Source of the DNA: an uncultured Chthonomonadaceae bacterium
GTDB lineage: Bacteria; Armatimonadota; Chthonomonadetes; Chthonomonadales; Chthonomonadaceae
Length of the DNA stretch: 64,000 nt
Assembly: GCA_963817895.1 (NCBI GenBank)
Contig: CAWFQB010000002.1
Location: 160,001 to 224,000, forward strand
Reading direction: 5' to 3'
The notes under the pieces were generated by a model. The model made no database searches, was not told where the DNA came from, and saw only the letters and a list, made by a program, of their open reading frames with translations. The position numbers were made by a program, and so were the translations under genes. Of the stretch, positions 4,746-59,260 are shown in pieces (within the stretch, counting starts at the first letter, position 1; each line of letters begins with the position of its first letter).

Positions 4746-7166
4746 ATGGCTCGAAGGAACCAACAAACTATGCTGGCCCAAGAAGAACCCGATGTTCATA
4801 TTGTCGCAAGAACAGCAGCAAGCGTTGCGTCCAGCACGCGCGACATTCTCACAGTTCAGCAATTTATTGATCTCTGCACACGCTTGCAACCTGTCCGTGC
4901 CGCAGAAGACAAAGACAGCGGCCTGTGTGTGACGGCACTCATTGAATACCTCATAGTCGATGGCGAAGTGATCAAACTATCGCTGATTGACGGTCGTTGG
5001 GCTGCTTTATACGTGCGCGTCAGCGATGATGGGCAGCGCAGCAGCAAATCTGGCAAAGCGGTTGCGGATGGCTTTTCGGAAGATGAGCAACTGGAACGCG
5101 GCGTCCGCTATTTTATCAGCAAAAAGCAAGCGTTCAAGGTTTACTCAGACTGCGGCATCTCTGGCGACTATCCCATTGATGACGACAACCTAATCCGTCG
5201 CCTGCTTCAAGGACGGGCAGCGCGCTATCGCAAAATCTACACCCGCACCCTTCTTGACGAGACCTCCCTGCTGCGCCGTTCGGAAGCAGAGATCGCGTCC
5301 ATGAACGCATACGTAGATGGACAGTGCGCCAAGATTTTACAAAGCAACGTCAGCGAGGAAGAAATTTACACGTCGGATGAGTTGGGTGTGCGGCAGAAAT
5401 TGCGACTTAAGGGAAGGCCACGCAAGCATGTATTCTTCCGGCAGGGCTATTCGCAACTTTGGCAAGACATAGAGCAGGATAAGGTGCATACGATTGCCGC
5501 CAGCGACCGATCCCGCCTCAACCGCGCCGCCGATTTGGAAACCGAATTCCTGCAAAGGATTAGCCAGCATAATGTGCGCCTGCACGGGCTGATTGAGGAC
5601 ATGTCCACACTGGATGTCTCCGATCCACTCCGCAAAGGCACAACCTATCTGCTTGCGTCGGTAAACGAATATCGCTTGGAAGAATTGGCGGGACATTCGT
5701 TCCGCGGCAAAATCCAGGGACTTGCAGATGGAAACACAAGTGGGCGGCTTCCCTGGTGGTTGCAGCGCACAAGAACGGGCAAGGCTGAAATCATTCCCGG
5801 TGCGGACGACATTGCCCGTAAAATGGTAAACCTCTACTTGTCGGGCTTGGGCTACGCGGCTATTGCGACGCGACTGGATAAAGACAATGTGCGAGTGGGC
5901 GGCAAGCGCATCACGAGCCGTCAAGTCGCTTATATGCTCGACAGCGATGCCCTTATTGGTATCCAATGGCAACTTGGTTTGGCATGGTGCATCTTTCCTG
6001 CGCTTTTGGATGAGGAGACGCTGCAAGACTTGCGCTGCAAACGCAACAAACGCGCCCATGCCATTAAGAACTTGCACGAGACAGCACAGTGGGCTGATCA
6101 CCTTTTTACGGGCATCCTGAACTGTTGTTGTGGCGCGCGGCTTATCTATAATGCTCCTCGCAAGAGCGACAAAGAAAAAGGGCGCGGGGGCTATTATCGC
6201 TGCCTCACGCGCAATACGCAGGAGGGAGACGATAGTACGCACGCTTGGATCAACGAAGACACGCTTGATGCCTTTCTTTCGGAGATTCTGCGCCACAACC
6301 CCAACCTGCTCACGGGTGAGTTTGGCAGTGATCTGGGCGATCCGCTTTCCCAAAGTACGGCTCGCCGCAGTCTACTCCAAGAGCAACTGGCCCAGGCAGA
6401 GCGCGGATTTGTGGAACAGGAGAAAGAGGCAAAGATCAAGGCCGAGCAGTTGGCAGTGGGAATGGGCCTTCATGTAGGTGCGCCGGGGTTCAAAGAAGCC
6501 GTGTCTGGAATCGTCAAAGGACTAATGGGCGAGAAACAAGTAGAACTGGACACGCTTCGCCACGAAATTGATGATCTAAGCGGACAGATCAGTGATGACC
6601 GCCGAAAGCGGGAGTTGGCAGCGTCCGTCCAGCGATTGCAGGGATGGGATAATCTGGATAACATAACGCGCAACAGGTTACTCCGCACCATCTTCGAGCG
6701 TATCTCCATCTACCCGATGTCCAGAGGAGGCTATCTCGATATTAAACTGGCAGGCATAGATGTTCACCTACCCCCCGCCAAGATGCGTCGTATGAAAGCG
6801 AAGCAAATTGCGTTGCCGACACCAAAAGAATGGCTCACGGACATGTTGCGGTATGCTGCCGATCCAGAATGGTTGACACACACGGAAATGAAGATGAACT
6901 CCCGCACGATGAGACCATTCAACGCCTTTTTGAAAACGATACGCAATGAGAATTGTCCAATAGGCGGGTTGGCAGCGCGTCTGTGTGCCGATGCAGGCTT
7001 TCCGCAGCGGGTGTATTACAAGCCGCGTGTAGAGGCATATATGCGGCAGCAAGGGGCAAGCGAGGAGGAAGTAGCGCTCCTCAATGAAATGTGGGAGCGC
7101 TATGTAGAGGCTGAACTAAGTCGGAGAGAAGCCAAGCAAGTAGAAGAAAGTACGCCTGCGGATTAA
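4746..7166 (+). CDS. large serine recombinase (integrase)
   Basis: AALYVRVS catalytic motif, YSDCGISG, DRSRLNR, recombinase domain, zinc ribbon FTGILNCCCG...YYRC, coiled coil, RNRLLRTIFERI. Confidence 0.9.
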   Translation: MARRNQQTMLAQEEPDVHIVARTAASVASSTRDILTVQQFIDLCTRLQPVRAAEDKDSGLCVTALIEYLIVDGEVIKLSLIDGRWAALYVRVSDDGQRSSKSGKAVADGFSEDEQLERGVRYFISKKQAFKVYSDCGISGDYPIDDDNLIRRLLQGRAARYRKIYTRTLLDETSLLRRSEAEIASMNAYVDGQCAKILQSNVSEEEIYTSDELGVRQKLRLKGRPRKHVFFRQGYSQLWQDIEQDKVHTIAASDRSRLNRAADLETEFLQRISQHNVRLHGLIEDMSTLDVSDPLRKGTTYLLASVNEYRLEELAGHSFRGKIQGLADGNTSGRLPWWLQRTRTGKAEIIPGADDIARKMVNLYLSGLGYAAIATRLDKDNVRVGGKRITSRQVAYMLDSDALIGIQWQLGLAWCIFPALLDEETLQDLRCKRNKRAHAIKNLHETAQWADHLFTGILNCCCGARLIYNAPRKSDKEKGRGGYYRCLTRNTQEGDDSTHAWINEDTLDAFLSEILRHNPNLLTGEFGSDLGDPLSQSTARRSLLQEQLAQAERGFVEQEKEAKIKAEQLAVGMGLHVGAPGFKEAVSGIVKGLMGEKQVELDTLRHEIDDLSGQISDDRRKRELAASVQRLQGWDNLDNITRNRLLRTIFERISIYPMSRGGYLDIKLAGIDVHLPPAKMRRMKAKQIALPTPKEWLTDMLRYAADPEWLTHTEMKMNSRTMRPFNAFLKTIRNENCPIGGLAARLCADAGFPQRVYYKPRVEAYMRQQGASEEEVALLNEMWERYVEAELSRREAKQVEESTPAD

Positions 7167-7376
7167 CTACCAGACGAACAGCCGTAGCCCATGATAGACG
7201 CTGCGGTGGGCTTCGCTTTCCGGTTGCTGCGCCATCTGTTGCAGGCGATCAACAACCTGCGTGCGAGTCTCCCAAAGAGAAGGATGTACAGCATCTTTTT
7301 GGACTTCGTTCAGATGGTTGGCAAGGTTCTGGTAATCGTCAGCAGTTGGTTGTTTGGCAAAGTGGAACATGCGCAT
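7167..7376 (-). CDS. small hypothetical protein convergent with the recombinase
   Basis: 69 aa, TAGGAG immediately upstream, stop abuts the recombinase stop. Confidence 0.45.
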   Translation of the reverse strand: MRMFHFAKQPTADDYQNLANHLNEVQKDAVHPSLWETRTQVVDRLQQMAQQPESEAHRSVYHGLRLFVW

Positions 7377-7473
7377 CTCCTAAAAGCGATCATTGCAATA
7401 TAGTATACTCTAGCCAAATCGTTCATGCAAGGGAGATGGAAAAGAAATCGTTGTATGTTTGCTTGCTAAAATG

Positions 7474-7647
7474 GATCAGCCCAGTCGAAAGAAATTTTTG
7501 ACTGGGCTGATCTGCGTCTGCCAATTGGCAGACTATTCTCTCTGGATCATTTCTTGTGGGACAAGATATAATATGTCCGTGAATACGTAGAGGCGTGGCA
7601 GAAATATTTCTGCCACGCCTCTACAATTTGTCGGAAGGTCTATCCGA
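7474..7647. repeat. cluster of inverted repeats/palindromes
   Basis: 7474-7512 (13-bp arms), 7516-7533 (18-bp palindrome), 7587-7624 (38-bp perfect palindrome), 7631-7647 small hairpin. Confidence 0.85.
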
Positions 7648-7678
7648 TCTAACAATCAATTTGCTCTCGCTTAAGCCG

Positions 7679-9538
7679 CTATGGGCGAACACCGTTCAGT
7701 TCTCCATCACACCTGTCAACTGCTCGCTGATACCAGCCTCCGACGTTACCACCCGATGCCGCACTTACCGCAGGCGCAGGATTCGCAAATCGATACCACC
7801 CATTGCATGTTGCCTCCTGCTGCTTTGTAGACCTTTGGCTATTGCGTAGCCATGCTAAAAGTCGTTCAAGGGCGACGCAATCCTTTTCTAAATATTCGGC
7901 GATGAGTTTCATTTCGTCGGTTTTGAGGGGTTCTTCCTCCTCGTACGCGGCCCATCCCGCGACTTGTGCCGCCTGCCCCGACATACCATCAGGCCACTCT
8001 ACCTTATAGCGCGGCGCGTATTCCCCCAATGCCTGCGCAATTTCCTTGAGACCGAAGTTCCAGCAACCGGGTAGGCACACCGGCCCTTGTAGAAACACCT
8101 CGCGCAGATCAACGAATGGCAGAGTTTCCAATTGCCATAAGCCGTGTCGTTGGGCGGCCTGCCGCGCTTGCCATACTTCTGCACTGCTGAAATGATACAG
8201 GGCAGCAGTCTTCGATGGATCAAATACTCCTCGCCCACGTAAAAAGGAGAGGAACTTGCGGAGCATTTTGGCCTCAGCCTCGTGCGTTTCTTCTTCCGCC
8301 GTAAAGCGCCTGAAAATCCACTTTCGACCCTCCTTGTATCCGCAGCCGATCATAAAGATCATAGGCGTGCCTGGTAGTAGGGGCCATTCATTAAAGTCCG
8401 GCTTCAACCCCGACATGTACTCCATATCGAGCATTATGGAAACCTCTGCTTTACGCGGCACGAGGTTAGAGGGGATGTCCGACGCTTTGCCGGTTTTGTT
8501 GGCCTTCAACACTGCGCGCAGGCGTTCCGCCAGCGCCGGGTAGATGCCGTCTACATCCTCAAAACGCAGCCGATCAATGTTGCGTGAGAGCAGATCGTCA
8601 ATGCTTGTAAAGCCGTGCAACCGCATTTTGCGGGCGGTCTCCTGGCCTACTCCGGGCAACGTGAGCAAAGAACGAGGTCTCACCTTGTCCCGCAAAATTT
8701 CCTGTTTCGCGTTGTGGAACGGTTCGTCAGATTTATTCATGGGGTTAAGAACCGTTTTTTTGTTTTTGTTTCCCCACGGCAGCCAATTTGCCCCACGCAA
8801 TTTGATGTCCAAGTAGGCATCCCGCAAGTCAGTCAATTCATCGTCCAGGGGTTCATCGATTTTAAGGTTGACATCTACGATAAGGGGTGCATCAATGGTG
8901 TCTCTGGAAATGATGTAGGCGCGGCGGGGCATGTGTCCTTGCAGTTGTCCCAGCATGTAACTGTAAATTCGGGTCTGGGTGGTGGCGTGTTCCAGGTGGT
9001 CTTTCTTCGCCGTTGAATCCAAATTTTGCGAAAACTTGAAATCAATCACAACGTAGTGAGGTGGCTCCTCCACAGTCGGCTTGAGGTGGGGGTAGCGCTT
9101 GTAGAGCCAGGATGTGTGAACGATTCCATCCGCCACCCCGTAAATTTGCTCTGGATACCACCACAGCGCCGCCTGCCAGAGAAACTTTGTTCCTTTTTGA
9201 AGATGCTCAACGGTTTTCTCAAAAGCGTCCTTATTACGCACTTCCCCATTGTGCTGCAACAGGCGCACGGCATGGGGAGCCTCATGGCGGATGTAGGCGG
9301 CTTCAAACTCAGCGCCTAATTTGCTCAGAAATGGTAAGAGACGGTATCTGCCACTGTCTTTATGGTAGCCCTGATTTTGACCGTGTTCGGCGATCCAGAC
9401 GAGTCCTGGATCATTGAAGATGATCGCCCTCCCACGGCTCGCGGAAAACATGTCATCTGAGATACAATCCTGCCCGCCCGTCGCGCGCTCTAATACGTTA
9501 TTTGGTTCCATCGCAAACTCCAAAAAGAAAGTGTGCAA
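7679..9538 (-). CDS. TM0106-family RecB-like nuclease with HhH and RNase H-like C-terminal domain
   Basis: GVADGIV...VIDFK PD-(D/E)xK motif, QTRIY, LPGVG HhH, LDME/VDL/GLK/YLEKDC RNase H-like motifs; start may be 9511. Confidence 0.8.
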   Translation of the reverse strand: MHTFFLEFAMEPNNVLERATGGQDCISDDMFSASRGRAIIFNDPGLVWIAEHGQNQGYHKDSGRYRLLPFLSKLGAEFEAAYIRHEAPHAVRLLQHNGEVRNKDAFEKTVEHLQKGTKFLWQAALWWYPEQIYGVADGIVHTSWLYKRYPHLKPTVEEPPHYVVIDFKFSQNLDSTAKKDHLEHATTQTRIYSYMLGQLQGHMPRRAYIISRDTIDAPLIVDVNLKIDEPLDDELTDLRDAYLDIKLRGANWLPWGNKNKKTVLNPMNKSDEPFHNAKQEILRDKVRPRSLLTLPGVGQETARKMRLHGFTSIDDLLSRNIDRLRFEDVDGIYPALAERLRAVLKANKTGKASDIPSNLVPRKAEVSIMLDMEYMSGLKPDFNEWPLLPGTPMIFMIGCGYKEGRKWIFRRFTAEEETHEAEAKMLRKFLSFLRGRGVFDPSKTAALYHFSSAEVWQARQAAQRHGLWQLETLPFVDLREVFLQGPVCLPGCWNFGLKEIAQALGEYAPRYKVEWPDGMSGQAAQVAGWAAYEEEEPLKTDEMKLIAEYLEKDCVALERLLAWLRNSQRSTKQQEATCNGWYRFANPAPAVSAASGGNVGGWYQRAVDRCDGELNGVRP

Positions 9539-9774
9539 GCGCGTAGATCAGGTTGTGTATGATCTGGGCTTACATACTATCCTTCTAAATCAAGATGGGG
9601 ATGCACCTGGCTTTGGGAAACTCATCTGACATGTTTTTTTACACAATGTCGGCGTCCAGAGATATTCTGAACTCCCGCGTTCCCAGTATCAGGCACTTCC
9701 GTGGCATGGGAGGAACGTGTTCAATTTTATACAAGACAAGTAAGTCCGGTGGGGAACCTTTTTGGCTTTCCGCA

Positions 9775-9783
9775 TGATACTAT
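9775..9783 (+). promoter_or_regulatory. extended -10 (TG-A-TACTAT), probable leaderless start at 9791
   Basis: ATG 7 nt after the -10, no SD. Confidence 0.5.
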
Positions 9784-9790
9784 AAGTACA

Positions 9791-10276
9791 ATGACTTCCC
9801 GGACGCAGAACAACCGAAGATGGATTGGCTGGCTCCTGACGCTTGCAATGGTCGTCTTAGCCTTGCCTTCGGGTGCGTCCTGGCAATGCCTGGATGGAAC
9901 TCCCTGTCCGGCGAACTGCCCCATGCTTCGGGCTTCGAGTTCTCGTACGGCTTCCTGTGCGACTTCATCGGGGAAGCATTGCTCCCTCTGCACGCCTCGT
10001 GCAGCCGCATTGATAACGTCTCCGCATCATGGCTCGGCTATCGCCTGCACGTCACCAAAGTGTGTTGTGCGGGTTTCTGAGCGGCCTGCCTCTACACTAC
10101 AACAGGGTGTTAAATTCCATGTGCCGTTGCTGGCGCTCCCGCCTCCCGCTCCGGTGCAGTTCACGTTCGTTATCAGTGAAACTACGCTCCTGATTTCGTT
10201 CCCCATTCGTCTTTACTTCTACCCACAACGCTTTCTGCGGCCTGCCTCTGGTCGCGCTCCACCTGCTTCCGTATGA
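9791..10276 (+). CDS. Cys-rich leader protein with C-terminal RAPP (DUF2946/CruR-like)
   Basis: N-terminal hydrophobic segment, several Cys clusters, ends SGRAPPASV; first gene of RND operon. Confidence 0.7.
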   Translation: MTSRTQNNRRWIGWLLTLAMVVLALPSGASWQCLDGTPCPANCPMLRASSSRTASCATSSGKHCSLCTPRAAALITSPHHGSAIACTSPKCVVRVSERPASTLQQGVKFHVPLLALPPPAPVQFTFVISETTLLISFPIRLYFYPQRFLRPASGRAPPASV

Positions 10277-10474
10277 CGCCTCTGCCGTGTGGCATAGATG
10301 ATTTGCGTTCGCGCACTTCTATCCGCTCCGGCATATCTGTACGCCTTTCCAAACACCAATTGATGATAAACCTGTCCCACGTTCTTCATGGTGGTCACCT
10401 TTTGTCGCCGTCATGTTGCAGGGACTCTGTCGTCGCACGGCTGATTTCGCGGCTGCGACATCAAGGAACGATTG

Positions 10475-10777
10475 ATGAAATACACCAAGCCGGGCGTCGT
10501 GGCTCTATGCCTGACTCTGACTGGCGCGACTGCTTTTCATGTCTGCGCGCAGACAACACCAAAGAAGTTGGGAGCAAAACAAACGAAGCCTGCGGCGAAG
10601 AAGACGGCGACCGAGGCGAAGAAGACGGCGACCGAGGCGAAATACAGGGCGCACTGTGGCATGATCTACTCCGCCTCCGACGCTAAGAAGTATCACTATG
10701 TCTGCCCGATGGATCATAAGCCCCTAACCAAGATCGCCGCAAACGCGAAGTATGGGGGAACTGTCCCGGTGAAGTAG
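10475..10777 (+). CDS. secreted small heavy-metal-binding protein
   Basis: Signal peptide, Lys-rich linker, HCGM and YVCPMDH motifs. Confidence 0.7.
   Translation: MKYTKPGVVALCLTLTGATAFHVCAQTTPKKLGAKQTKPAAKKTATEAKKTATEAKYRAHCGMIYSASDAKKYHYVCPMDHKPLTKIAANAKYGGTVPVK
10594..10641 (+). repeat. 21-bp in-frame tandem repeat (KKTATEA x2)
   Basis: GGCGAAGAAGACGGCGACCGA twice plus a partial copy. Confidence 0.85.
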
Positions 10778-10806
10778 TAATACCAAGCCGTTCCGCTACG
10801 TGGGAA

Positions 10807-11448
10807 ATGGCTATTTCCCACGTAGCGGAAGCCAATTTTATGGAAGTGAATACCAAAATGTCTCTCTGGCAAACCCTGCAAACGAATACTCACAAACTTG
10901 GCAAGTGCCAACGCTTGCGCATCGGGCCAGGAACCTTGCTTGCCGTTGTGGTGGCGGCAGCGATCCTGTACGGACAGGTCATGCGCCCGCAGCCAACTGC
11001 TGCCGGGACAAGCCAGATCGTGTATGAAGCCGACGCGCAGGGCCATCTGCGCCGGGTCGCCGCGCCCACCATGTCACCCACCACGGTGCCGCCCTTATGG
11101 AAGCCGGAAATCAGTTTTCTGCTAGACCATGACGGTGAACTAAATCTGCGGCTTGATCAGCGCAAACAGATGAACACCTTGAATATGGCGTGGCTGCGTG
11201 AGAAATCAGCATTGGAACAGCAGATCAACCGTGCGGCGACGGATGCCGATACGCTTTTGAAGCAGGCAACGCCGGAACATGGCGCGGCACCAGCGATGGT
11301 CGCCAGCAGTCTGAGCGACTATTCGGCGTTGTCTGCCGAGTACGATCAGCGGCGCGCGGCTTATTGGGCGAAGGCTGCCGGATTGTTGACGCCTACTCAA
11401 CTTCATCAACTCGACAATGTGCGTCCATCGGCAGGGAAACGAAGATGA
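10807..11448 (+). CDS. membrane-anchored helical periplasmic protein (Spy/CpxP-like)
   Basis: One TM segment, helical body, LLTPTQ motif; ATGA overlap with TolC-like gene; start uncertain. Confidence 0.55.
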   Translation: MAISHVAEANFMEVNTKMSLWQTLQTNTHKLGKCQRLRIGPGTLLAVVVAAAILYGQVMRPQPTAAGTSQIVYEADAQGHLRRVAAPTMSPTTVPPLWKPEISFLLDHDGELNLRLDQRKQMNTLNMAWLREKSALEQQINRAATDADTLLKQATPEHGAAPAMVASSLSDYSALSAEYDQRRAAYWAKAAGLLTPTQLHQLDNVRPSAGKRR

Positions 11449-12790
11449 TACGACCTATCAACAAGCCTAAAATGGGGATAATGGTGGCCCTGGCACTCGG
11501 TCTCTCCCTTCCGTTTGGCGGTGAAGCACAGACATTGGGCGCGGAGAGACCTGAAATCAAGGGGCCACTCTCTGTAGCACAGGCGGTGCAAACCGGTCTT
11601 CGGGAGAACCTGATGGTGCGCGCCGCGCAAGCAGACGTTCGGGCCGCCATCGCAGAGACACGAGTAGCGCGCAGTCAGACACGCCCGCAGGTATCGGCAA
11701 ACACCTACCTCTCCTTTGGCGACTCTAATAATATCCTCTACACAGCCGGAAACGTCATGCCTCAGAACTACCTGAGCGTTCCCTCGCAGGGCTTCGCCGA
11801 CCAAAACCTCACGCTCATGGTTCCTATCTACTCTAGTGGACGGCTGGAAAACTCGGTGAAAGCCGCTTCGCAACGGGAGCGCGCCGTCGCTTCCGACGCT
11901 GGCGGCGTTCAGGCGGAAATGGTCTTGCGGATCAAAGACGCCTACTATCGCGCGCTGCTCGCGGCGGAAACCGTCAAGACGGCCCAAACGCGCGTGGATG
12001 CGAGCACGGAACTGGTGAAAACCACCCAGGCGCTTTATGCAGCGGGCAAGGGCCTCGAAGCCTCGGTGCGCCGAGTGGAGGCAGAACTCGCCGATGCGCA
12101 ACGCGCGCTGACAACAGCCCGCAACATCCAGGCCAAAGCCCTGCTTGATCTCAAGGCCGCAATGGGAGTGCGCCTCGACATCGGACATCTCTCTCAGCGA
12201 CGCGCTCACATTTACACCACCGACCGGCGACCTTGCCGCACAACTGACGGATGCCGCAAAAACGCGCCCCGAACTACAAGCGGTGCGGGCGCGCGCAACG
12301 GCAGCCGAGGCGCAGACCCGTTCGGTTCGCGGTTCACAGGGGCCGCAGGTGTATGGCATGGCGATGGCGGACGGTTTCACATCCCACCCACAGGGAACAC
12401 GCGAAGGCTATACGGTGGGCGTTGTCCTCAGCCTGCCCCTGATGGACGGAGGACAGCGCCGCGCCGAAACCGCGCAAGCGCGGGCGCGGCAGGAACGCGC
12501 CGAAGCCGAAGCGCGTGACCTGGAACTGCGCGTTGCGGTGGAGGTGCAGCAGGCATGGCTGGATGTGCAGACGGCGGCAGAAAATTACCGCACCGCCCAG
12601 GCCGCGTTGCAGGCCGCGCAAGCCGCCTATGATGTGACCGCCCTCCGCGTGCAGAACCAGAAGGGCCTGCTTGTCGAGCAGTTGGACGCCCTCGCCGCAC
12701 TGACGCAGGCGCGCGGGAATGTGGCGCAGGCGCTGCTATGACCATTCTCTTGCCGTTGCCCGGTTGCAGCGCGCGGTGGGGAGGCCATGA
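11445..12790 (+). CDS. TolC-family outer membrane efflux protein (2 frameshifts)
   Basis: LSVAQAVQTGL, IKDAYY, RPEL, SLPLMDGG, VQQAW; pieces 11445-, 12145-12741 and a tail ending RAVGRP*. Confidence 0.85.
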
Positions 12791-15192
12791 CTACAATGAT
12801 GAGACAGACCATGAAATCGAGAATACGAAGAAGCCTGCTTTGCATAATGGCTTTCGGGTGGCTCTGGCTCTGTCTGCCATTTGCCGCTTTCGCCGGGCCG
12901 CAGACGCAGGCCGGGCCATACCATGTTGAATTAACGACCGAGACCGGCATGGTTCCTTCTACGGGCCGGGCTAAACTGCTCCTAAAACTCACCGATGCGT
13001 CCAGCAAGCCCGTGCAGGGAGCAACGATCCGGTCGCTTACCAAGATGCCAGGCATGAACATGGGTGAGCGAGAAGAAACCGCCATACCGGTGCCAGAATA
13101 GCCCAGGCGTGTATACCGCCCCCGCGCAATTTGCGATGGAAGGTGGGTACGAGGCGAGCCTGAAAATACAGGGGCCGCAGGGAGCGGCAAATGCTACGGT
13201 TTCTCTCAACACCGGGGAGAATATCGGAACTCTCTCGAACTCCGCAGGCACAGGTTCTCAGGCTGGCAATCGTGGCAGTGGCGTCAGGATTTCACCTGGA
13301 CTTCTGCTGCCCTGGCTGGCAGGAGGAGCCGTTATTCTGTTCATCCTTTATCGTATGCGGCGTACAGGCCAGCGTCTATCTTTGCGGGCTGCGGCGAACC
13401 GTTCCGTTCTCGGCGGGTTGATTCTGCTCGGCCTGATCCTCTGGGGCGCAGTGTACGCCGTGAACCACTTCCGCCGAGCAGGGAGCCATGACGCCCATCG
13501 AGGTGCAGGCAATGGACATGAACCTGCCCGCGCCTGCCGGAACTGCCCCTGTGGAACTGGCAACCGTGGAGAGTGGGCAGATCGAAAGCACAGTTCGGTA
13601 CACGGGACAGGCGGTAGGCTTTGTGGAGCAGGATGTGACGCCACGCATCACCGGCACGATTACGATGTTGAACGTTTATGCGGGCGATCGCGTGAAGCGC
13701 GGGCAACTGTTGGCGCGGCTGGACACCAGCCAATCCGCTCCCCTCGTTGCCAATCAGCGCGCAGGCTTGAACATGGCGCGGCAGGGCGTGGGCGTAGCAC
13801 AAAAAGAGTATCAGCAGGCGATTGCCGCCATCAATGAAGCCCATGCCGAAGTGGGCATGAAAACGGGAGCCGTAGAAAGCGCCCGCGCCGACTTGATCGC
13901 CGCGCAAGAGGAGCGCGCGAACGCACAGGCACAACTGGACGCCGCGCAGAGCATGAATGGGGATGCGAGTGCCCAATTGCAGGCAGCGCAGGCCGATCAG
14001 CAATACTGGCGCGACGAGATCAGCCGTGAAGCATCGCTGCTCAAAGCCGGAGCCGTGACGCAGGAAGAGTACCAGCGCGAGAAAGCGCAGGCGGAGAACG
14101 CAGATGCCAAAGTGCGACAGGCGCAGGCGCGTGTCATGCAGGTACAGGCGCAAATTCGCGGCGCGCAATCTGCGGCACGCAAAGCCGAAGCCATGATCGC
14201 CTCCACCAAATCGAAAGTGGATCAAGCCCAAGCCGAACTGAACTCGCACTATGCCCATGTGCGTTCGACGCAGGCCGCAGCGGATTCTGCGCAGACAAAA
14301 GATTGTGCAGGCCGAAGCAGGGGTACAGCAGGCGCAGGCGACACTTGCAGGCGCGTCGGCAACGCAGGGATACAGCGAAATTCGTTCACAAACGGATGGC
14401 GTGGTCACACAGCGCGTCATCAGTCCCGGCGTTCTGGTCAGTCCCGGTCAAACCATTTTGCGGATTTCACAGATCACGCCCATTCGATTGCAGGCCAATG
14501 TGAGCGAATCTGATTTGTCGAAGGTGCGCGTTGGCAGTCATATTCTGGTCAACAATCAGGATGGAAACATCAAGCCGCTGACGGCACAGATCACCTCGGT
14601 CGCGCCCTCAGTTGATCCGTCCGGGCGTACCGGGGTTGTGGAAGCCATCGTTCCGAACAGGGACAGCCGCTTTTTGCCGGGGCAGTACGTGACGATGGAC
14701 ATTTCCACAGGTCGCAACACGAACACCTTGCGGATACCCACGCGCGCCCTTCGCTACCATGCGGCTCCTTCGGGCGGCGTGATCTCTACGCAGACGACAC
14801 CCTCCGTCTGGGTGGCGGAACCTGTTGCCGGACAGGAAGGCCAGTACACTGTCCACGAGGTGGAGGTGAAGGTGGGATTGAGCGACGAGAAAAGCACGGA
14901 AATCCTCGCCGGCTTGAAAGCCGGGCAGAAGGTGGTTGTCGCAGGGCAGGACTATCTCAAAAACGGCGATACCGTTTCGCCCGTCGAAAGGCAAATCGCC
15001 GCCAGTAATTCATCCTCCCCGGCAGCGATGAACGGAAGCGCGGGAACAAACAGCACACCCACCCCAGGATCGGCAGCCCCGCGCACTCTCTATACCTGCC
15101 TGATGCACCCGGAAGTGGTTCAGGATCATCCCGGCAACTGCCCCAAGTGCGGCATGGCCCTCGTTCCCAAGCGAGCAGGAGGCGCGCGATGA
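12787..15192 (+). CDS. RND periplasmic adaptor with N-terminal YtkA-like domain and C-terminal metal-binding domain (3 frameshifts)
   Basis: MPGMNMG/GVY YtkA-like start, GDRVKRGQLLA lipoyl-like motif, long alpha hairpin, C-terminal YTCLMHPEV...CPKCGM. Confidence 0.85.
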
Positions 15193-18100
15193 AACAACAA
15201 TCTGAAAACAGTACGCCTTCCGCTCCCCATGCTGGCAGGGGACTGAACGCGCTGCACATGATCCATAAGTGGAGCATCGAGCATCCGTATGCCGTGATTG
15301 CCTTCTATGTCGCAATGGTGGGGTTGGCCTGGATGACGGTCAGCCAAACCATGCCGCGCCGGTTCGCGCCCTACGTGGAAAGCCCGATGATCGGCGTCGT
15401 CACGATGATGCCCGGGCTTGTCCGCGCAGGAGATGGAATTGTACGTCAGCAACCCCATCGAGCAGCAGATGGTCAACGTCAAGGGCATTCGCTACGTCCG
15501 CTCCACGTCCCAAAACGGGTTTTCCATCGTTACGCTTGGAATTTCCCTATGGCACGAACATGCAGCGCGCCCTTGTGGACGTGCAATCCCTCCTCAACGT
15601 CACGCAATCGAACCTGCCTGCCACCGGAGCCAACCTCAAGCCGTCCTGGGTCGTGCCGATTGACCCGCTCAACCTCCCGATCCTGACGCTGAGTGTGCGC
15701 GGCGAAGAAAAGCAAGGGTGGGATGCGCTGCGGGTTCGGGAGTTTGCCGACAACACGATCGTCAACCGGCTCAAGGGCGTGGAGAACGTCTACTCCGTCG
15801 TTCCGTTCGGCGGCTATCGGCGGCAGATGCAGGTGATCGTAGACCGGAGCAAACTTGCCGCCTACCGGCTTTCCATTCTGGACGTGAAGAACGCCATTGA
15901 CCGCTTCAACGTCACCCGGCCTGCCGGAACGCTCACGAACGGCGCGCAGGAAGGCATCGTTCGCATAGATACGCGCGCCCGCAGCGCCCAGGACGTGCTG
16001 AACTACCCAATCACCAGTGTTACGACAGGAGCGAGTGCGCCGACCACGAGTCCCGTTGGCGATAGCAGCGGAGGCGGCATGGGCGGGATGGGTGGCGGGG
16101 GAGCGGACACATCTGCTGCGACTGCACCCGTTCGCGCATCGGGGACAGGAGAGACTGCACGTTCGCCGCGTGTCGTCTATGTTCGGGATGTGGCGCGCGT
16201 TGTGGACTCCCACTTCGAGCGGCGCAGCGGCTACCATTATCTCAAGCATGACCCCGGCACAAAGGGCGAAGTGATTCCTTCCATCGAGGTGTCGGTGATT
16301 CAAGACCCCGGCGCGAGTTCCGCGCAGGTCGTGCCTGCGGTGATGAAGGTCGTCAAGCAGTTGGAGGAGGAAAATCCGGGCCTGCACTTTGAGACTTCCT
16401 ACGACAACGCCCACTTCGTCAACATCCTGTTCCACAACGTCTGGGAGGAACTTGCCGTCGCCGTTCTGCTCACCGGCATCGCCGTCCTGTTCTTTCTGGG
16501 CGAATGGCGCGGAACGCTGATCGCAATGGTCACGCTGCCCACGTCTCTGGCTATCGCCGTGCTGCTGATGGTTCCGTTCCACATGACGTTCAACAGCGGC
16601 ACGCTCATCGGCCTGCTGCTCTCGATCGGGCGGCTCGTAGACGACAGCATCATTGACATTCATGCGGTGGAGCGGCACATTCGCATGGGCAAGGACGCCA
16701 AAACCGCGACGATTGACGGCATTGCCGAAGTGCGGGTTGCTGTCATCGCGTCCACGCTGATGATCGTCCTCGCGCTCTCGCCCCTGCTGTTCGCGGGCGG
16801 GCTGACGGAGTTGATGTTCGTGGAGTTGGTGTGGCCCCTGATCTTCGGCCTGCTGGCTTCGATGCTCGTCTCGTTTACCCTCACAGCCCTGCTTTGCGCC
16901 AATCTGCTGCGCCCTGAAAGCGCGCGCGAGGCTGACCGCCGCCATTGGCTACTGCGCTGGCTGTACGTGCTGCTCGACCCATTTCAGACGATGGCTTGAC
17001 CGGCTGGAAAACGGCTACGGGCGCATCATCCGCTGGATGCTCAAACATCGCTTCGCCAACCTTGCCCGCGTTCTTGGCACGCTTATCATCGGCCTGACGT
17101 TTTACTACTTCATCGGCAGTGAAATGATGCCTCTGGCGGATGTGGGGCAGGCGAGCGGCGTTCTGGAAATGGCTCCGGGAACTTCGTATGCCGAAACCGA
17201 GCGCGCCGTGGGGCAGTTGGAGCGGATCATGGCCCGCTATCCCGGAATTGGAAAAAGCCAGCGTGGAGATCGGGGCCGAATCCATGTTCGAGAGTTACAG
17301 CCCCTACTACACCGGCTACCAGATGCCGCAGGTGAACGGCGCGTCCCTGATGCTGACCTTTTCCGACAAGGACACGCGCAAGCGCACGATCTTCCAGATC
17401 ATGGACACTGTCCAGAAGGAAGCACTGCACACCATTCCTGGCATTCGACGCTTGCAGATCAAGGAGATGGGCAGCGACGTGATGGCGACTTCGGCGGCTC
17501 CCGTGCATCTCAACATCTACGGCCCGGACTTGAACGAACTCGACCGCTTGGGGCAGGAGACATTGGCTGTTGCCCGCCAGATGCCGGAGATGTATCAGCC
17601 CGCCACGACCTGGACAGTGGGCCTGCCGGACTTCCAGATCAAGGTTGATCCACAGCGGGCGCAGGAAGTGGGATTGACGCCGGAAAGCATCTCGCAGCAA
17701 GCGTACTATGCCATTGGCGGCGGCCTGACCAACGAGTTCTTCCGTCTGCCCAATCTGCGCCAGAACACCATTCAGGTGCGCTATGAGGAGAAAGACCGGG
17801 CTACGGCGCAGAACCTCGAAAACCTGTATCTTGTCCACACCGGACGGACGACAGATACCGCTGAAATCGGTGGCGAGCATCCAACACCAGAATGCTCCAA
17901 CCGTGATTGAACACGACATGCTCCGGCGCGTCATCGGCATCACAGGCTACTACCGCTCCAACAACCTGCCCTCGATGGACGTGGTGATGAACTTGGTCAC
18001 CAACACGTATGCAGGCAATCCGAAGTTGGGTATTCAGGCCTGTCAACTTCCCTCCCGGCTATGGCATGGTGGCGCGTGGCGACATGCTGGAAATGATGTC

Positions 18101-18725
18101 CGCGTTCCGGCGCATGATGTCGGGGTTGGCGCTCGCGCTCGTGCTGATGTACCTGGTGCTGGTGGTGCAGTTTCGGGGCTTCTTGCAGCCCTTACAGATG
18201 ATTGCCAGTCCTGCCGCTGGAACTGGCGGGCGTGTTCACGGCTCTGTGGCTGGCGCATCAGTCGTTTTCCACTGTATCGCTGCTTGGGCATCATCGTCCT
18301 GACGGGCATGGACATAACGACCGCCGTGCTGCTCATTGACATGGTGATGAAGTACCGGGATCGAGGCGTACCGCGCGATGAAGCCATCGCACAGGCATGT
18401 CCAGAACGACTGCGGCCTATCCTGATGACCGCTGGCATCACCCTCCTGACCATGCTGCCCGTCGCCCTTGCGTCCGAAGACCGGCCTGGATGCCTACCAG
18501 CCGCTTGCCACAGCGGTCGTCGGCGGCCTGATTGTCGGCACGATCCTCAGTCTGTTCGACATCCCGATCACGCATACGCTGGTAGACGATCTGACGCGCT
18601 GGCTCAACAAGACTTTCTTGAACCGGGAGTACCATTGGCCTGTGACAGAAGCGCCGGAGATATTGGAGGGTTCATCGCCGAGCAAAGAAGATGTAGTTCA
18701 ACCGCATCGCGTACCCGAAGGATAA
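15189..18725 (+). CDS. RND efflux permease (AcrB/CusA family; multiple frameshifts)
   Basis: PIEQQM, GRLVDDSII, RLRPILMT, PLATAVVGGL spread over successive ORF pieces. Confidence 0.85.
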
Positions 18726-18746
18726 AATCAACGGTAGCCAATCATC

Positions 18747-18780
18747 CAGATGACGGGCAAGATTTTCTGCCCGTCATCTG
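18747..18780. terminator. hairpin between convergent operons
   Basis: CAGATGACGGGCA / TGCCCGTCATCTG 13-bp arms. Confidence 0.7.
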
Positions 18781-18841
18781 ATTCTGGACAACACATGGAA
18801 CATAGAAAGTGAGGACGAACAACACAATCAAAGTATCAAGA

Positions 18842-30250: not shown

Positions 30251-30689
30251 TCATCCCTGGAAAGGTGGGGCGCGAGGCGAGGAGGAAGAACGCGAAACGC
30301 TTTGCGCAGTTTCGTCTGCGTCGGCAATAAGAATATCACGACGCGCTACGGCTGGCGCACAAATGCTTGGAGTAGAGACGAGAATAGCCGGAAAGGACAC
30401 AACGACGATGAGTCTGCGGCGTGGGTACGCGCTCAGGCGCAGGGTTGACGGCACAGGAACAGTCGTTCCTATGGCAACTGTCAGAGTGAGCCGCGTTGTG
30501 TGCCATACCAAAGCGGGCAGCATGGCAGGCGCAAGTTACGGTATGGGCGGCGCAACACGCGCGCGGCATGGGAGCGGCTTGCCCCATGTCCTTGCAGGCG
30601 GCGACAGCAGGCGCGCAGGTCGCAAGCGTTGGGAACGCCAGGATCAGCAAAACCGCCAGATGCCAGATTATGCGTCGCGTCGTGTGCAT
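30251..30689 (-). CDS. Cys/His-rich leader protein with C-terminal RAPP (frameshift ~30430)
   Basis: Signal-like N terminus with CC/CAC/CSC in one frame; PRAPPFQG* in the other. Confidence 0.65.
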
Positions 30690-52536: not shown

Positions 52537-55637
<3,101 letters not shown>

Positions 55638-55640
55638 GGC

Positions 55641-57427
55641 TCAGTCATCCCCTTTCAGTTTGTCTTTGTTGGCTTCGCTTTTCAGGACAAACATGCCTTC
55701 CGTGACAACGCGCTCACCGGCTTTGAGGCTTCCGATGATTTCCGCCTGTGTATCGGTGACGCGCCCAACCTGCACCTTGCGTCGCTCGTACTTGCCATTC
55801 TCCTCCACGTACACGAACCTGTCCGCGCCATCTTCTTCCAGGGCGGAGACCGGCACGGTGAGGGCGTTCGTGCGCGTACCAACGCCGAGCGTGACGCGGG
55901 CGAACATCTCCGGGCGAAGCAGCCCGCTGCGGTTTTCGACCAAACACCGCACAGCAAGCGCGCGGGTCTTTTCGTCTACCCGGCCTGCAATGCTCTGCAC
56001 TGTTCCGGGGAAGTGCTGCTTGGGATAGGCCGGAACCGTCACCTCCACAGGCTGCCCCACCCGGATGCGCGCAACGCTCGCTTCGGCAACATTGGCGTTG
56101 ACCGTTACGGTGTTCAGGTTCTCGATGACAAGAAGGGCCGTCGTGCGCTCCACAGCCTCGCCGGTTGTTGCGGCGCGCTCCGTAACAACCCCGCTGATAG
56201 GAGCCGAAACGGTGATCAGACCGCCATTTCCCTCCGTATGCCCACTTCCTTCCAGGGCGTAAAGATTGGTGCGGGCGGTTCGCAACGTATCTTCCGCGCC
56301 TCGCAAAGTGGTTCGGGCCGCCTGCTCGCCTTTTTGTGCGCGGCGAACGTCCTGCTGTGCCCGCAGCACTCCCTGTCGGGCTTTCTGCACCTCGCCCTGC
56401 GCGGCGCGCACGTCGGCTTCTGCGGTCTGCACTTCGCGCGCGTTCAGCAAACCGCCCTGAAAAACGGTCTGTTCGCGTTGCAGCGCTTGTTTGGCAATGG
56501 CGACACGCTCCTGAATCCGGTTCACCGTGATCTGGTTCTGTTTTTGTTCCAGTTGTGCCGCTTCGTAATCGTTGCGCGACACCAATTCTTCTTTGAACAG
56601 CCGCTCGGTGCGCTGCAACTGCGCCGCGCGGGTTTGCAGTTGCGCTTGCGCCTGTTGTAGTTCGGATTGGGCAGCGGTCACCTCGGTCTGAGCGGCTTGT
56701 AGCGGGACTTGTGAGAAGGCTCCCGCCTGAGCCAGTTTACGCTGGCGCTGCAACACGGTTTCCGCGCTGGCTTGCCGGGTGCGCGCCTGCTCCACTTCGC
56801 CCTGCGCCTGCTGGACGCTTGCTTGGTACTGTGATACCTCCGCCTGCGCGGTTTGTATCCCGGAGCGCGCCTGCTGTATGCCGGATTCGGCCTGGCGCAC
56901 GGCAGCATGGGCCTGTGCCACCTCATAACTATCCAGAACGACGAGCGGCTGTCCGGCGCGCACCGTATCGCCAAGATTGACCAGCAGGCGCATCACCTTG
57001 CCGGGCGTGGGCGGCGTAATCTTCGCGCCCCGATTGGGACTGAGTTCGACGGTGCCGGGAACGGTCAGCCCTTCGCCGATGGACGCAAGACGCGCTGCCA
57101 CCACGCGAATGCCAGCAGTTTTGGCGGCTTCCTCGCTCAAGGAAATGGAGCCGGAAGCGTCGCTTTCTGCTTTGGCTTCTTTGGGTGCGTCCTGAGCCGG
57201 GCTTGTGGCGGCGGGGGCGATGGATGAAGGCGCGGCATTACAAACGACGTAGCCACAACGCCGAGCAGAATGCCGCCAATGATAAGCGGCAAGCCCGATT
57301 TGCGCGGTGAGGCGGCCTGGCGCCTGCCAGAGATCGGAACACTTGCCGCAGTCCCATGCGTGGTTCTAGGTACAGGTGGCGGTATATGTTCGGTTGTGTT
57401 GTGTGTGGTTTCGGGCAAAGGATTCAT
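55641..57427 (-). CDS. czcB: heavy-metal RND periplasmic adaptor (frameshift ~57150)
   Basis: GDTVRAGQ, SAPISGVV, LRPEMFA. Confidence 0.85.
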
Positions 57428-57429
57428 GT

Positions 57430-58699
57430 TTACCTCCGGGGCGCGGGCAGCAACGAAGCAGGAACCGCACCCGCCGCGCGCTCCAACTCGGCGCGCGCCT
57501 GGGCCTGGTTTGCCAGAGCGTTGATGTAGTCGGTTTGCACGGCGCGATATGTGCGCTGCGCTTCCAAAATGGTGAGGACGCTGGTTCCCGCCGCGCCTTC
57601 CTGAAACGCCCTGCGGCTGCCTTCCAGCAGGCGGCGTGACTGGTCGAGGATGCCCTGTTGGTAGTTCAGCGCCACGGTTTGAGCTGCGCGCAGGCGGGCA
57701 ATGGCCTGAGTCACTTCCTGCTGCACCTGGTTCTGGGTTGCGGTAATGCGGTCCGTCTGCGCGCGGGCAGATTCTTCGGCCTGGCGGATGCGGTTGCGGC
57801 GATTGCCGTAGTCAAAGATGGGCAGCGAAATGCCTAGTCCCACGCCGAAGCCGTTGCCCGTGTCGCCGCTCGGCGTCCCTCGTACCAGGCTGCCGAAGCG
57901 GATTTGGGGCGCGAGGTCAGGGCGGCCCTCGGCACGGGCAAGGCGCGCTTCCTGCAAGAAGGTGTCGCGGCTGGCAGTCACACTGGCAATCTCGGCCCGG
58001 TTTTGCAAGGACTGCTGCACAAGAGCCGCATCAGTGAGCGTTTCCGTAGCCGAAGGCAGTGGGGTGAGCGGGCCAATGGGAGTGTCTGCGGGTCTTCCCA
58101 AGAAGGTGTTCAGAGCAGAAATTGCAGCCGTCACCTGGGCATCTGCAAGGGTCACCTGCTGCTGCGCGCGCCCCACTTCAATGCCGGTCTGTGCCAGATC
58201 AATGCCGGGCCGCCTGCCCGCCTTCCACTAGGAGGCGCGTCACGCGGTCGAACTCCTGCGCGTTTTTCAGCACCTCCTGCGCCAGGGTTTGCAGTTCCCG
58301 CGCCTGTTCCAGTTGGTAGTAGGCGGACTTGGTAGCCGACACGAGACCCCGCAGTTCAACAACCGCCTCGGCCTGGGTGACGCGCAACTGCGCCCCGGCA
58401 ACGCCTGTGCGCGCGGAGCGAGTTCCATTGAGTTCCAATGGCTGGGACAACAACAGTTCGTCGCCGGAACCGGAAATACTTGTCAGTCCTGGCGCGAAGA
58501 TGAAGTTGGGGTTGGTAAGCGCGCGTGCCGAACGGACGCCAGACTGTCCCGCCACGACATCTCGCGTGGCAGCCGACAGGCGTGGGTTGTTCTTGACCGC
58601 CAGCGTCACCGCATCGTCTGCGGTGAGGGGCGGGGATATGGTCTGTGCCGTGATAACACCCGGCACAAGCAAAAGCAAACAGGGAAGAATGAAACGCAC
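57430..58699 (-). CDS. czcC: TolC-family outer membrane factor (frameshift ~58200)
   Basis: NNPRL, LSQPLEL, SLPIFD, LEAQRT. Confidence 0.85.
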
Positions 58700-58800
58700 G
58701 AAATCCTCCTGACAGACCCGATGGGCCGGATGTCAGGCAGGCGTAAAGAAGGAATGGCACAATGCGCTGACGAACCCGGCTCGAAAATAAATTGGGTAGG

Positions 58801-59244
58801 TCAGGCGATAGGAGGAGCGCGTAGGGAAAGATTGCGGAAATTCAGAGGAGCGCGAGGCGGGCCGCGTGTCTCAATGTGAAGGAGAACAGTCTCGGATGCA
58901 GGCGGGGCCGCATACGTGATGGTGGGCAGAACAGGGAGAATGGCAATCGCAAGCGAGGGAACGATATGGGAAGGCACTGCGGCATCATGTGAGGTCGCCG
59001 CTTTGACGTTCAACGTACATTTACAGCCAGCGCCACACCCATCTGCTTTGCGGGCGTTGGTGGTATTCGTGGAGCGTACACGGCATTTTAAATCTTGCTG
59101 ACGGATAGGAGCCTGACAGCAACAAACAGCGGCAGTGCTGCATACGCGCCCGTCGCAAATCCAAGCCATTGCCTCCCCACTTGATAACAGCGAGGTTAGC
59201 AAAATCAGGCAGGCCAGTATTCGGGTGAAGATGTTTCGTACCAT
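58801..59244 (-). CDS. Cys-rich leader protein ending RGPP...RAPP
   Basis: Signal-like N terminus, WICDGRVC/CCC/CGAGCKC, ETRGPPRAP...LRAPPIA*; first gene of czcCBA operon. Confidence 0.72.
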   Translation of the reverse strand: MVRNIFTRILACLILLTSLLSSGEAMAWICDGRVCSTAAVCCCQAPIRQQDLKCRVRSTNTTNARKADGCGAGCKCTLNVKAATSHDAAVPSHIVPSLAIAILPVLPTITYAAPPASETVLLHIETRGPPRAPLNFRNLSLRAPPIA

Positions 59245-59251
59245 CCTGAGC

Positions 59252-59260
59252 ATTATACCA
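59252..59260 (-). promoter_or_regulatory. extended -10 TGGTATAAT, probable leaderless start at 59244
   Basis: ATG 7 nt downstream of TATAAT. Confidence 0.6.

Follow-up and report, generated by a model that had tools for sequence, protein, structure and literature searches.

Only two metal-sensing leaders have been shown experimentally, CruR (Bp2923) of Bordetella pertussis and CutF of Rhodobacter capsulatus, both of them proteobacterial DUF2946 proteins, whose responses to copper have opposite signs (PMC9426467, PMC9973294). The subject of the present report is leader 1, a gene at positions 9791–10276 (plus strand, stop codon included) of a 64,000-nucleotide stretch of DNA, called the window below, from an uncultured Chthonomonadaceae bacterium of the phylum Armatimonadota (assembly GCA_963817895.1, contig CAWFQB010000002.1, positions 160,001–224,000 of the forward strand). 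Judged by analogy with CruR and CutF, leader 1 is, with a probability of roughly 0.6, a cis-acting regulatory leader gene whose secreted product would, in the manner of these two, act as a sensor while still a nascent chain, placed ahead of an operon for a resistance-nodulation-division (RND) efflux system.

CruR possesses an export signal, a CXXC motif and a RAPP motif three residues from its end, and the spacing between CXXC and RAPP is 45 residues within ±1–2. Mutation of RAPP abolished downstream expression, and copper led to Rho-dependent termination in the 162-bp intergenic region (PMC9426467). The arrest of CruR was demonstrated in vitro with the two proline codons in the ribosomal P and A sites; RGPP was found equal in strength to RAPP, and RSPP partly permissive (PMC12992588). 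In the case of CutF, copper prolongs the stall and a stem-loop masking the Shine–Dalgarno (SD) sequence opens (PMC9973294; bioRxiv 10.1101/2025.02.05.636593). A survey of 5,334 CutF-like proteins showed genes for outer-membrane efflux proteins (OEP) and RND pumps to be the commonest downstream neighbours, and the class of CutF-like leaders before RND efflux genes is already published. RND operons are the commonest predicted target of such leaders (PMC9973294); no experimentally tested leader linked to an RND operon was found in the literature surveyed. The metal-linked groups of RAPP/RGPP peptides described in PMC12992588 precede TonB receptors, YcnI, PCuAC and PepSY, and the word "efflux" does not occur in the main text of that paper, nor "Armatimonadetes" in the main text of PMC9973294. 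Among the matches listed in a literature search (12 of 233) none linked Armatimonadota to RAPP arrest peptides, and the one paper mentioning both an armatimonad and an arrest peptide was unrelated.

Structure of the leader gene and its product

Leader 1 (protein P0001) runs from an ATG at 9791 to a TGA at 10274–10276 and forms an intact open reading frame (ORF) of 161 residues, supported by 33 homologues and by alignments A1 and A3. An earlier, sequence-only reading of the window had let the ORF begin at 9775; the ATG at that position is followed by a stop after three codons, and the conserved start is that at 9791, whose methionine is the first residue in 19 of the 35 rows of alignment A1. 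Over 10111–10261 and 10132–10337, which takes in the RAPP motif and the stop codon, short contigs from two further public runs are identical to the window; a look for RNA runs covering the locus returned none.

The hydrophobic N terminus and the cysteine clusters described in that reading are both present. Residues 1–29 (9791–9877) are signal-peptide-like by their sequence, by family conservation and by the AlphaFold2 (AF2) model, in which a helix spans residues 3–24 and the block has a predicted local distance difference test (pLDDT) of 72–91. The n-region contains R4, R9 and R10 and is followed by a 15-residue hydrophobic h-region, WLLTLAMVVLAL, and by the residues PSGA before SWQC, between which cleavage would presumably take place. 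A role as anti-sigma factor was ruled out from the sequence, the cytoplasmic part comprising only about 8 residues. The next block is a Cys/Met-rich module (residues 31–95; 9881–10075), putatively a periplasmic metal or thiol sensor in view of its conserved cysteines. It includes SWQCLDGTPCPANCPM and contains W31, C33, G36, C39, C43, M45, C64-x-x-C67, C86 and C91 as key residues; strands 29–33 and 91–95 are paired in the model with low confidence.

A proline-rich linker with the element PLLALPPP and a variable stretch (10076–10216) fixes the length between C91 and RAPP and leads into a conserved arrest-type segment, FYPQRFLRPASGRAPP (10217–10264), marked by the invariance of RAPP, whose codons occupy 10253–10264. 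The GRAPP that had been called terminal is found at 10250–10264; it is not strictly terminal, since the three codons for ASV and the TGA stop (10265–10276) come after it. The AF2 model as a whole (pLDDT 61; predicted template-modelling score 0.32) shows no globular fold; apart from the helix and the strand pair it is coil, the C-terminal 60 residues included. This would be expected of a sensor acting as a nascent chain rather than of a folded domain, although a weak model proves little.

Conservation and distribution of the family

A word-index protein search with leader 1 returned 33 proteins of about 160 residues with 39–100% identity, and a profile search of 1.84 billion protein cluster representatives gave 147 representatives of the leader-1 family, mostly 150–170 residues long. 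RAPP was invariant in the 35 aligned homologues. Among the 147 representatives, 135 carried R-(A/G/S)-P-P not more than ten residues from the C terminus (RAPP in 110, RSPP in 17, RGPP in 8), with 3 residues between motif and end in 75, 4 in 29 and 2 in 13. The motif was lacking in 12, for the most part fragments, plus one unrelated protein of 1161 residues. The related DNA loci were found with alignment A2, a closer subset of A1 (22 of its 35 rows). Across 47 such loci three Arg, four Ala and four Pro codons were used at the motif, so that all four positions varied synonymously with the residues unchanged; therefore selection acts on the peptide. The tail after RAPP was 2–5 residues long in these loci, and 3 residues in 31 of them. 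In a six-frame count over the genome RAPP stood near the end of 23 ORFs, AAPP of 58 and RPAP of 64; the motif is thus not enriched there in general, and the case for the leaders therefore rests on conservation.

In an hmmalign alignment of 175 full-length members C33 was retained in 174, C39 in 173, C67 in 166 and C91 in 171. The spacing from C91 to R155 was 56–65 residues, with a median of 61, in 167 of 168 members, in contrast to the distance from C33 to C91, which varied from 41 to 86; from C64-x-x-C67 to R155 the median was 82 residues.

Every named record of the family belongs to a metagenome-assembled genome of the Chthonomonadaceae or Chthonomonadales. Matches occurred in 41 of 401 genomes of the phylum, comprising 26 of 32 in the same family, 9 of 20 in a sister family and 5 elsewhere. 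The source genome itself contributes three, namely leaders 1 and 3 and a gene at C1:1505799. The family lacks a Pfam model, NCBIfam gave no match for any leader, and the neighbours in the ESM Atlas, a lead only, were unnamed clusters of Bacteroidota and Verrucomicrobiota with 143–153 of 256 features in common. By these comparisons, leader 1 and the family to which it belongs are genuine and stand under strong constraint, of the sort expected for a RAPP arrest leader.

Comparison with CruR, CutF and other arrest peptides

The comparison with DUF2946 leaders made in the sequence-only reading did not extend to family membership. The DUF2946 hidden Markov model (PF11162; gathering score 23.7 bits) gave no match at E<=1 for leader 1, leader 3 or the intact paralogue of leader 2, that is, for none of the three leaders of the window, and among 35 family members it matched one, at E=0.69. 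Alignment by hhalign of the leader-1 family (A3) with the DUF2946-like family of the same genome (A4; CAFC-43 residues-RAPP) yielded a probability of 7%.

In its architecture leader 1 resembles CruR as a small exported protein whose gene comes first in a metal operon, with an export signal, a fixed distance from Cys to RAPP and a C terminus lying about three residues past RAPP. Both genes are followed by a long spacer (162 nt for CruR, 198 nt for leader 1), and the C-rich spacer found here is compatible with the Rho-dependent output of CruR (PMC9426467). The differences are that CruR has a single CXXC and leader 1 a multi-Cys/Met module, that CruR belongs to the Proteobacteria and leader 1 to the Armatimonadota, and that CruR regulates a TonB-dependent importer, whereas an efflux pump follows leader 1; the opposite sign of the metal response is therefore probable.

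The plan of CutF and the CutF-like SilD, CusD, CopL and CzcI, namely a Cu sensor exported through Sec with a proline-rich stalling motif at the C terminus and with action in cis on a gene for detoxification, would also be that of leader 1, and their commonest neighbours, OEP, membrane-fusion protein (MFP) and RND genes of the Cus/Czc/Sil type, are shared with it (PMC9973294). CutF differs in having a PPP motif, dependence on elongation factor P and an SD-masking stem-loop, as against RAPP and an unmasked SD in the present case (bioRxiv 10.1101/2025.02.05.636593). The filter by which CutF-like proteins were collected demanded fewer than 150 residues, PP in the last 15 residues, a signal peptide and a same-strand gene within 1000 nt (PMC9973294); leader 1 has three of these four properties, its 161 residues exceeding a length cut-off that is operational and not biological.

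Leader 1 also agrees with ApdA, ApdP and the upstream ORFs of PMC12992588, which lie ahead of the gene they control and encode small proteins, secreted or in the membrane, whose RAPP core is close to the C terminus; RGPP and RSPP variants are likewise present on both sides. The difference is that ApdA and ApdP monitor Sec and YidC and lie upstream of secDF or yidC (PMC7897499, PMC10951233). With an R-A/G-P-P core near its C terminus that is kept at the peptide level, leader 1 has the sequence hallmark of RAPP arrest peptides, and by analogy with them it very probably stalls at RAPP. Of the CruR/CutF logic proposed for the locus, the architecture was supported (a secreted Cys-rich protein with RAPP 2–5 codons before the stop, first in an RND operon), and the parts concerning DUF2946 and SD sequestration were not.

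Promoter and start of the leader mRNA

The ORF had been described as apparently leaderless, and a promoter was indeed found at a fixed distance from the ATG, with no SD. In leader 1 a −35-like GGAAC, resembling that of promoters for extracytoplasmic function (ECF) sigma factors, is located at 9753–9757 and a −10-like region, TGATACTATAAG, at 9775–9786, both on the plus strand; the latter ends 4 nt before the ATG. When 44 non-redundant upstream regions were aligned on the ATG, the information of the profile peaked at −38 to −35 (G25, G24, A23 and A27 of 44, giving GGAA) and again at −13/−12 (T26/A27 of 44). G(G/A)AAC began between −42 and −33 in 25 of the 44 loci, and many of them can be read as GGAAC-N16/17-(C/T)GATA(T/C)-N10-ATG without an SD. 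Because the promoter keeps a fixed distance from the start codon, the mRNA would be leaderless or nearly so, with a 5' untranslated region of probably about 0–5 nt.

A GGAAC motif is characteristic of ECF-sigma promoters. The other RAPP leader families of the same genome have TGnTAnAAT about 40 nt upstream, with an SD in one case, from which it follows that the GGAAC type does not represent the housekeeping pattern. A strict scan of the genome for GGAACYT-N14-16-CGATA gave four matches, none of them at a leader, and a looser scan gave 61, mostly noise, but with all three members of the family and a gene for an ECF sigma factor among them. No ECF sigma gene is present in the window. The one recovered by the scan (G000:C4:795466, minus strand; L082:3437-3967) encodes 177 residues with Sigma70_r2 and r4_2 domains and is itself preceded by GAAAC-N17-CGATAT-N7-ATG without an SD, the geometry seen at the leaders. 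By this resemblance it is a candidate for an autoregulated sigma factor serving the leader/RND promoters.

Spacer RNA and the possible output

The spacer between the stop of leader 1 and the next ATG (10475), estimated before at about 200 nt, measures 198 nt. A stable hairpin (10284–10334, −20.9 kcal/mol), which had escaped mention, begins 8 nt past the stop. The first 70 nt past the stop have a folding energy of −21.6 kcal/mol (z −2.64 against mononucleotide-preserving shuffles, the control used for all folding and SD comparisons), and the same segment folded better than shuffles in 40 of 43 loci, with a mean z of −1.42. Downstream of the hairpin lies a weakly structured stretch in which C exceeds G (10335–10395; C 17 and G 10 of 61), a candidate Rho loading region. 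C exceeded G in the first 100 nt of the spacer in 39 of 44 loci, with a mean skew of +0.075, compared with −0.007 for 900 co-directional gaps that served as a crude control within this genome; a rho gene is present in it as well. No intrinsic terminator was found within 9400–11000. The C-over-G spacers and the rho gene fit a Rho mechanism of the CruR/TnaC type, yet a stable hairpin stands directly past the stop. An effect on Rho-dependent polarity like that of CruR or TnaC is favoured with low confidence, and a Rho-dependent output for leader 1 should be regarded as tentative, its chances being below even.

The same arrest sensor could have a translational output like that of SecM or CutF, in which stalled or queued ribosomes remodel the spacer RNA and free the next SD. 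This alternative is unlikely, though it has the precedent of CutF (PMC9973294; bioRxiv 10.1101/2025.02.05.636593) and is favoured by the stable hairpin that follows the stop in most loci. Both inverted repeats named in the sequence-only reading exist (GTCGCA at 10432 with TGCGAC at 10454; ATCAA at 10460 and TTGAT at 10472 around GGAACGA) and lie at 10432–10477 together with the SD-like AAGGA (10463–10467) and the ATG at 10475. The hairpin around the SD and start, at −0.7 kcal/mol, is negligible and has the SD within the loop, and the region 10250–10500 as a whole folded no better than shuffles (z −0.49). The probability that the next SD is unpaired was 0.51 at leader 1 versus 0.35 in shuffles; across 36 loci it averaged 0.35 versus 0.28, falling below the shuffle mean in 10 of the 36 and into the lowest tenth in one. 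Sequestration of the SD as a rule of the family was thus not supported. At leader 3 the SD is largely paired (0.04 unpaired versus 0.17 in shuffles), and likewise at L005, L019 and L069; an SD switch of the SecM/CutF type may therefore operate at leader 3, as far as predicted folding goes.

Some words recur in the spacers (for example at 10338–10346 and, on the minus strand, at 58730–58745). CGCCT was found in 29 of 44 spacers against a background of 11.1 and ACGCCTG in 7 (background 0.6); words resembling CACGTCT/CACATCTG were also seen, and none of them could be assigned to a promoter or a fold. In L005, the closest named relative, the spacer has 304 nt, of which only the first ~75 nt resemble those of the window, and a long inverted repeat at L005:6640-6780 (GGGGTAGCCGGGGATTAAAAATCCCCGGCAGG … CCTGCCGGGGATTTTTAATCCCCGGCTACCCC) looks like an inserted palindromic element.

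Operon context and the nature of the signal

The genes following the leader were identified by a Pfam scan of same-strand downstream ORFs in 32 related loci, examined in sets of 10 and 22. The larger set was scanned over the first two or three ORFs of at least 80 residues, with L074, a near-duplicate of L069, left out, and the metagenome loci L014–L032 lay outside the scan. OEP, MFP or RND genes were found downstream in 22 of the 32 loci, the MFPs usually with HMBD or YtkA metal domains; the other 10 comprised 4 redoxin-type clusters and 6 with other genes or too short. Upstream neighbours were unrelated or divergent, and the leader is therefore the first gene of its operon. With leaders 1 and 3 before OEP/MFP/RND genes and leader 2 before YHS/multicopper-oxidase genes, the first-gene position in metal operons that had been claimed for all three was confirmed.

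These neighbours point to metal as the signal of leader 1, at slightly better than even odds. A second explanation retains the arrest peptide and lets it monitor oxidative folding, thiol stress or Sec capacity, disulfides in the eight-Cys module supplying the pull that ends the stall. It is less likely still than the translational alternative, even though the eight cysteines are conserved, a redoxin/thioredoxin-type gene is the main downstream gene in 4 of the 32 loci, and Trx/redoxin and efflux genes occur together at L009 and L013. It also has published parallels in a RAPP peptide that contains a pair of Cys and is encoded upstream of a gene with a thioredoxin domain (PMC12992588) and in ApdA and ApdP, known RAPP peptides that monitor secretion (PMC7897499, PMC10951233). 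What speaks for metal instead is that the 22 efflux contexts are heavy-metal RND systems whose partners carry HMBD/YtkA domains, that the window is a metal-resistance island, and that the C-x3-C-x-M motif would suit the ligation of soft metals. In the loci L010, L047, L050, L060 and L013 the leader precedes a redoxin gene of the AhpC/TSA type, often with a gene for a MetA-like outer-membrane protein, and these contexts hint at a thiol/redox side to the signal.

That leader 1 is an ordinary stable accessory protein, periplasmic or membrane-anchored, which binds metal like CusF or CzcI and uses RAPP in structure or sorting, is very improbable. In its favour, 161 residues are many for a leader peptide, the Cys-rich module may be a genuine site for metal, and CzcI-type small proteins without a Pro motif, encoded upstream of czcCBA, are thought to be metal-sensing regulators (PMC9973294). 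Against it, RAPP and RGPP are among the tetrapeptides most avoided in proteomes (PMC12992588), yet the motif is invariant here at 2–5 residues before the stop, no fold is seen by AF2 in the C-terminal 60 residues, and a fixed spacing of 61 residues has no obvious sense in a mature protein.

Proposed mechanism

Observed for leader 1 are the gene with its family, the invariance of the motif, a fixed spacing, the place in the operon and the geometry of the promoter, and from these the preferred reading, that of a secreted arrest sensor acting in cis, takes its start. The mRNA would begin at the ATG or a few bases from it, from the ECF-like promoter, and the signal peptide would lead the nascent chain into the Sec channel for co-translational export. 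The ribosome would stall at R155-A156-P157-P158 with 157 residues made, the first proline codon in the P site and the second in the A site. At that moment the linker of about 61 residues would leave the whole Cys/Met module (residues 31–95) just exposed on the periplasmic side, C91 being then 66 residues from the peptidyl-transferase centre, a stretch that would roughly span the exit tunnel and the Sec channel together; the same length argument was made for 45 residues in PMC9973294. The module could bind a thiophilic metal (Cu or Ag, perhaps Zn or Cd), or fold or become oxidised, and the resulting pull on the chain would determine how long the ribosome stays stalled. A prolonged stall near the stop codon would allow expression of the downstream OEP, MFP and RND genes, and after a short one the ribosome would terminate and leave. 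The likeliest output would be that Rho-dependent termination or polarity is prevented in the C-rich spacer, the opening of an SD hairpin being less likely. The sensible sign for an efflux pump would be that metal prolongs the stall, as in CutF; that metal switches the operon on is given an even chance.

Several points weigh against this mechanism. The function of leader 1 is carried over from known systems by analogy only, without detectable homology to DUF2946, and the spacing between Cys and RAPP is 61 residues as against 45 in CruR and CutF. In CruR the sign is the opposite one, copper relieving the arrest, and the direction of the response is therefore not inferable from precedent. Genes other than those of RND systems follow 10 of the 32 leaders, and the signal may therefore be thiol or redox state rather than metal. 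As to the RNA, the shuffles used for SD openness and for folding past the stop preserved mononucleotide composition only; the C-over-G skew occurs in the leader ORF itself as well (+0.084); and the spacers compared are kin and not independent, so that the significance of their C excess is overstated. Finally, with the P site at 10259–10261, the front edge of the stalled ribosome would come to about 10275 by the toeprint geometry of PMC12992588; this falls short of the hairpin at 10284, and therefore no simple structural switch is legible.

From the sequences, the leader-1 family is an undescribed and apparently independent version of the RAPP sensor; it has a sensor module, a ruler and a type of promoter of its own, as well as a subfamily with tandem motifs. 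It is tempting to join all parts into one picture: a Chthonomonadales-centred, Pfam-less family of RAPP sensors, independent of DUF2946 and made from a leaderless ECF-type mRNA, in which an eight-Cys/Met module about 61 residues from the peptidyl-transferase centre reads soft metals or the thiol state and gates RND efflux through Rho, with a tandem-motif subfamily besides. In this complete form the picture is rather doubtful. If it were true, metal homeostasis in this lineage would, at the post-transcriptional level, rely mainly on nascent-chain arrest, counting in the two other, unrelated RAPP/RGPP leader families of the same genome, which has at least seven such genes.

The family would represent an independent sequence solution to the CruR/CutF architecture, and its very sharp 61-residue ruler can be used to test the idea that the distance from Cys to RAPP positions the sensor at the exit of the Sec channel. 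It offers natural RAPP, RGPP, RSPP and tandem-motif variants, and it would join an arrest peptide with a leaderless mRNA and a promoter of the alternative-sigma type. Annotation pipelines miss leaders of this kind, leaving them unnamed or with wrong starts, and the published filter of fewer than 150 residues excludes them.

Other RAPP leaders in the window and the genome

The three RAPP leaders that had been counted in the window are all present. Leader 2 (30251–30689, minus strand) belongs to a different family, with a signal sequence, a Cys/His-rich part and the ending …SPRAPPFQG, and heads a YHS/multicopper-oxidase operon. It is frameshifted, being spread over two frames in the assembly, and has an intact paralogue, P0174, at G000:C14:747161-747601. 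The pattern of its family, unrelated to leader 1, is a signal peptide followed by CKD..CC..CAC..C..C and the ending SPRAPP(F/L)QG. Neither leader 2 nor P0174 matched Pfam or NCBIfam, and a word-index search for homologues of P0174 found none. Leader 3 (58801–59253, minus strand; AWICDGRVC…RGPP…RAPPIA) is a member of the leader-1 family with 22% identity (E 6.3e-13 to the family profile) and heads a second OEP/MFP/RND operon. In leaders 2 and 3 RAPP stands 2–3 codons before the stop.

Leader 3 has RGPP as its first and RAPP as its second motif and thereby belongs to the tandem-motif subfamily (58801–58880, minus strand; L018–L025, L046 and L047), in which two stalling motifs are 14–20 residues apart, as in …SSRAPPDQVVIRLSSPRAPPVWLI at the C terminus. 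Two motifs within the last 45 residues were found in 19 of the 135 motif-bearing representatives. Elsewhere in the genome there are two DUF2946-like leaders (G000:C1:729323-729748 and G000:C14:633615-634145, both on the minus strand). One has the pattern HCAFC-43 residues-RAPPIV and scores 21.5–21.6 bits, just below the cut-off of 23.7, and PF11162 is present in a homologue 78% identical to it; the other shows HCMAC…RGPPTV. In all, the genome contains at least seven RAPP/RGPP leaders of three families.

Downstream genes and surroundings

The genes after leader 1 all lie on the plus strand. The first (10475–10777) encodes an exported small protein of 100 residues (…YHYVCPMDHKPL…) which belongs to no family in Pfam or NCBIfam, and the second (10807–11448) is an ORF of 213 residues without a family match in Pfam. 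Then follow the OEP gene (11445–12787; Pfam OEP), split over three frames and collinear with an intact protein of 450 residues in L005, the gene of the membrane-fusion protein (12787–15192; YtkA-like, HlyD_D23 and HMBD domains), which is frame-broken, and that of the RND pump (15138–18781; ACR_tran), with at least four frame breaks, the last two judged from Pfam and from comparison with intact relatives.

P-type ATPases, cation diffusion facilitator transporters, a multicopper oxidase, MerR and a serine recombinase are all encoded in the window, which taken together is a metal-resistance island. A large serine recombinase (4746–7166) and an RNase_H/HHH protein (7679–9538, minus strand) stand directly upstream of the metal genes, at 4746–9538, an arrangement which suggests that the metal-resistance region of about 50 kb is an integrated mobile island.

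Frameshift-broken genes occur at 11445–18781, 52568–58176 and 30336–30535, and the parts flanking each break have 74–93% identity to intact relatives. The breaks in the first operon number two in the OEP gene, two in the MFP gene and at least four in the RND gene, and several of the junctions fall at short homopolymers. The genome is assembled in 14 contigs and its completeness is only 81%. On comparison with the intact relatives, the breaks look like long-read indel errors and not pseudogenisation; at 14291, a frame junction of the MFP gene, a short-read contig from run X3 is one base shorter.

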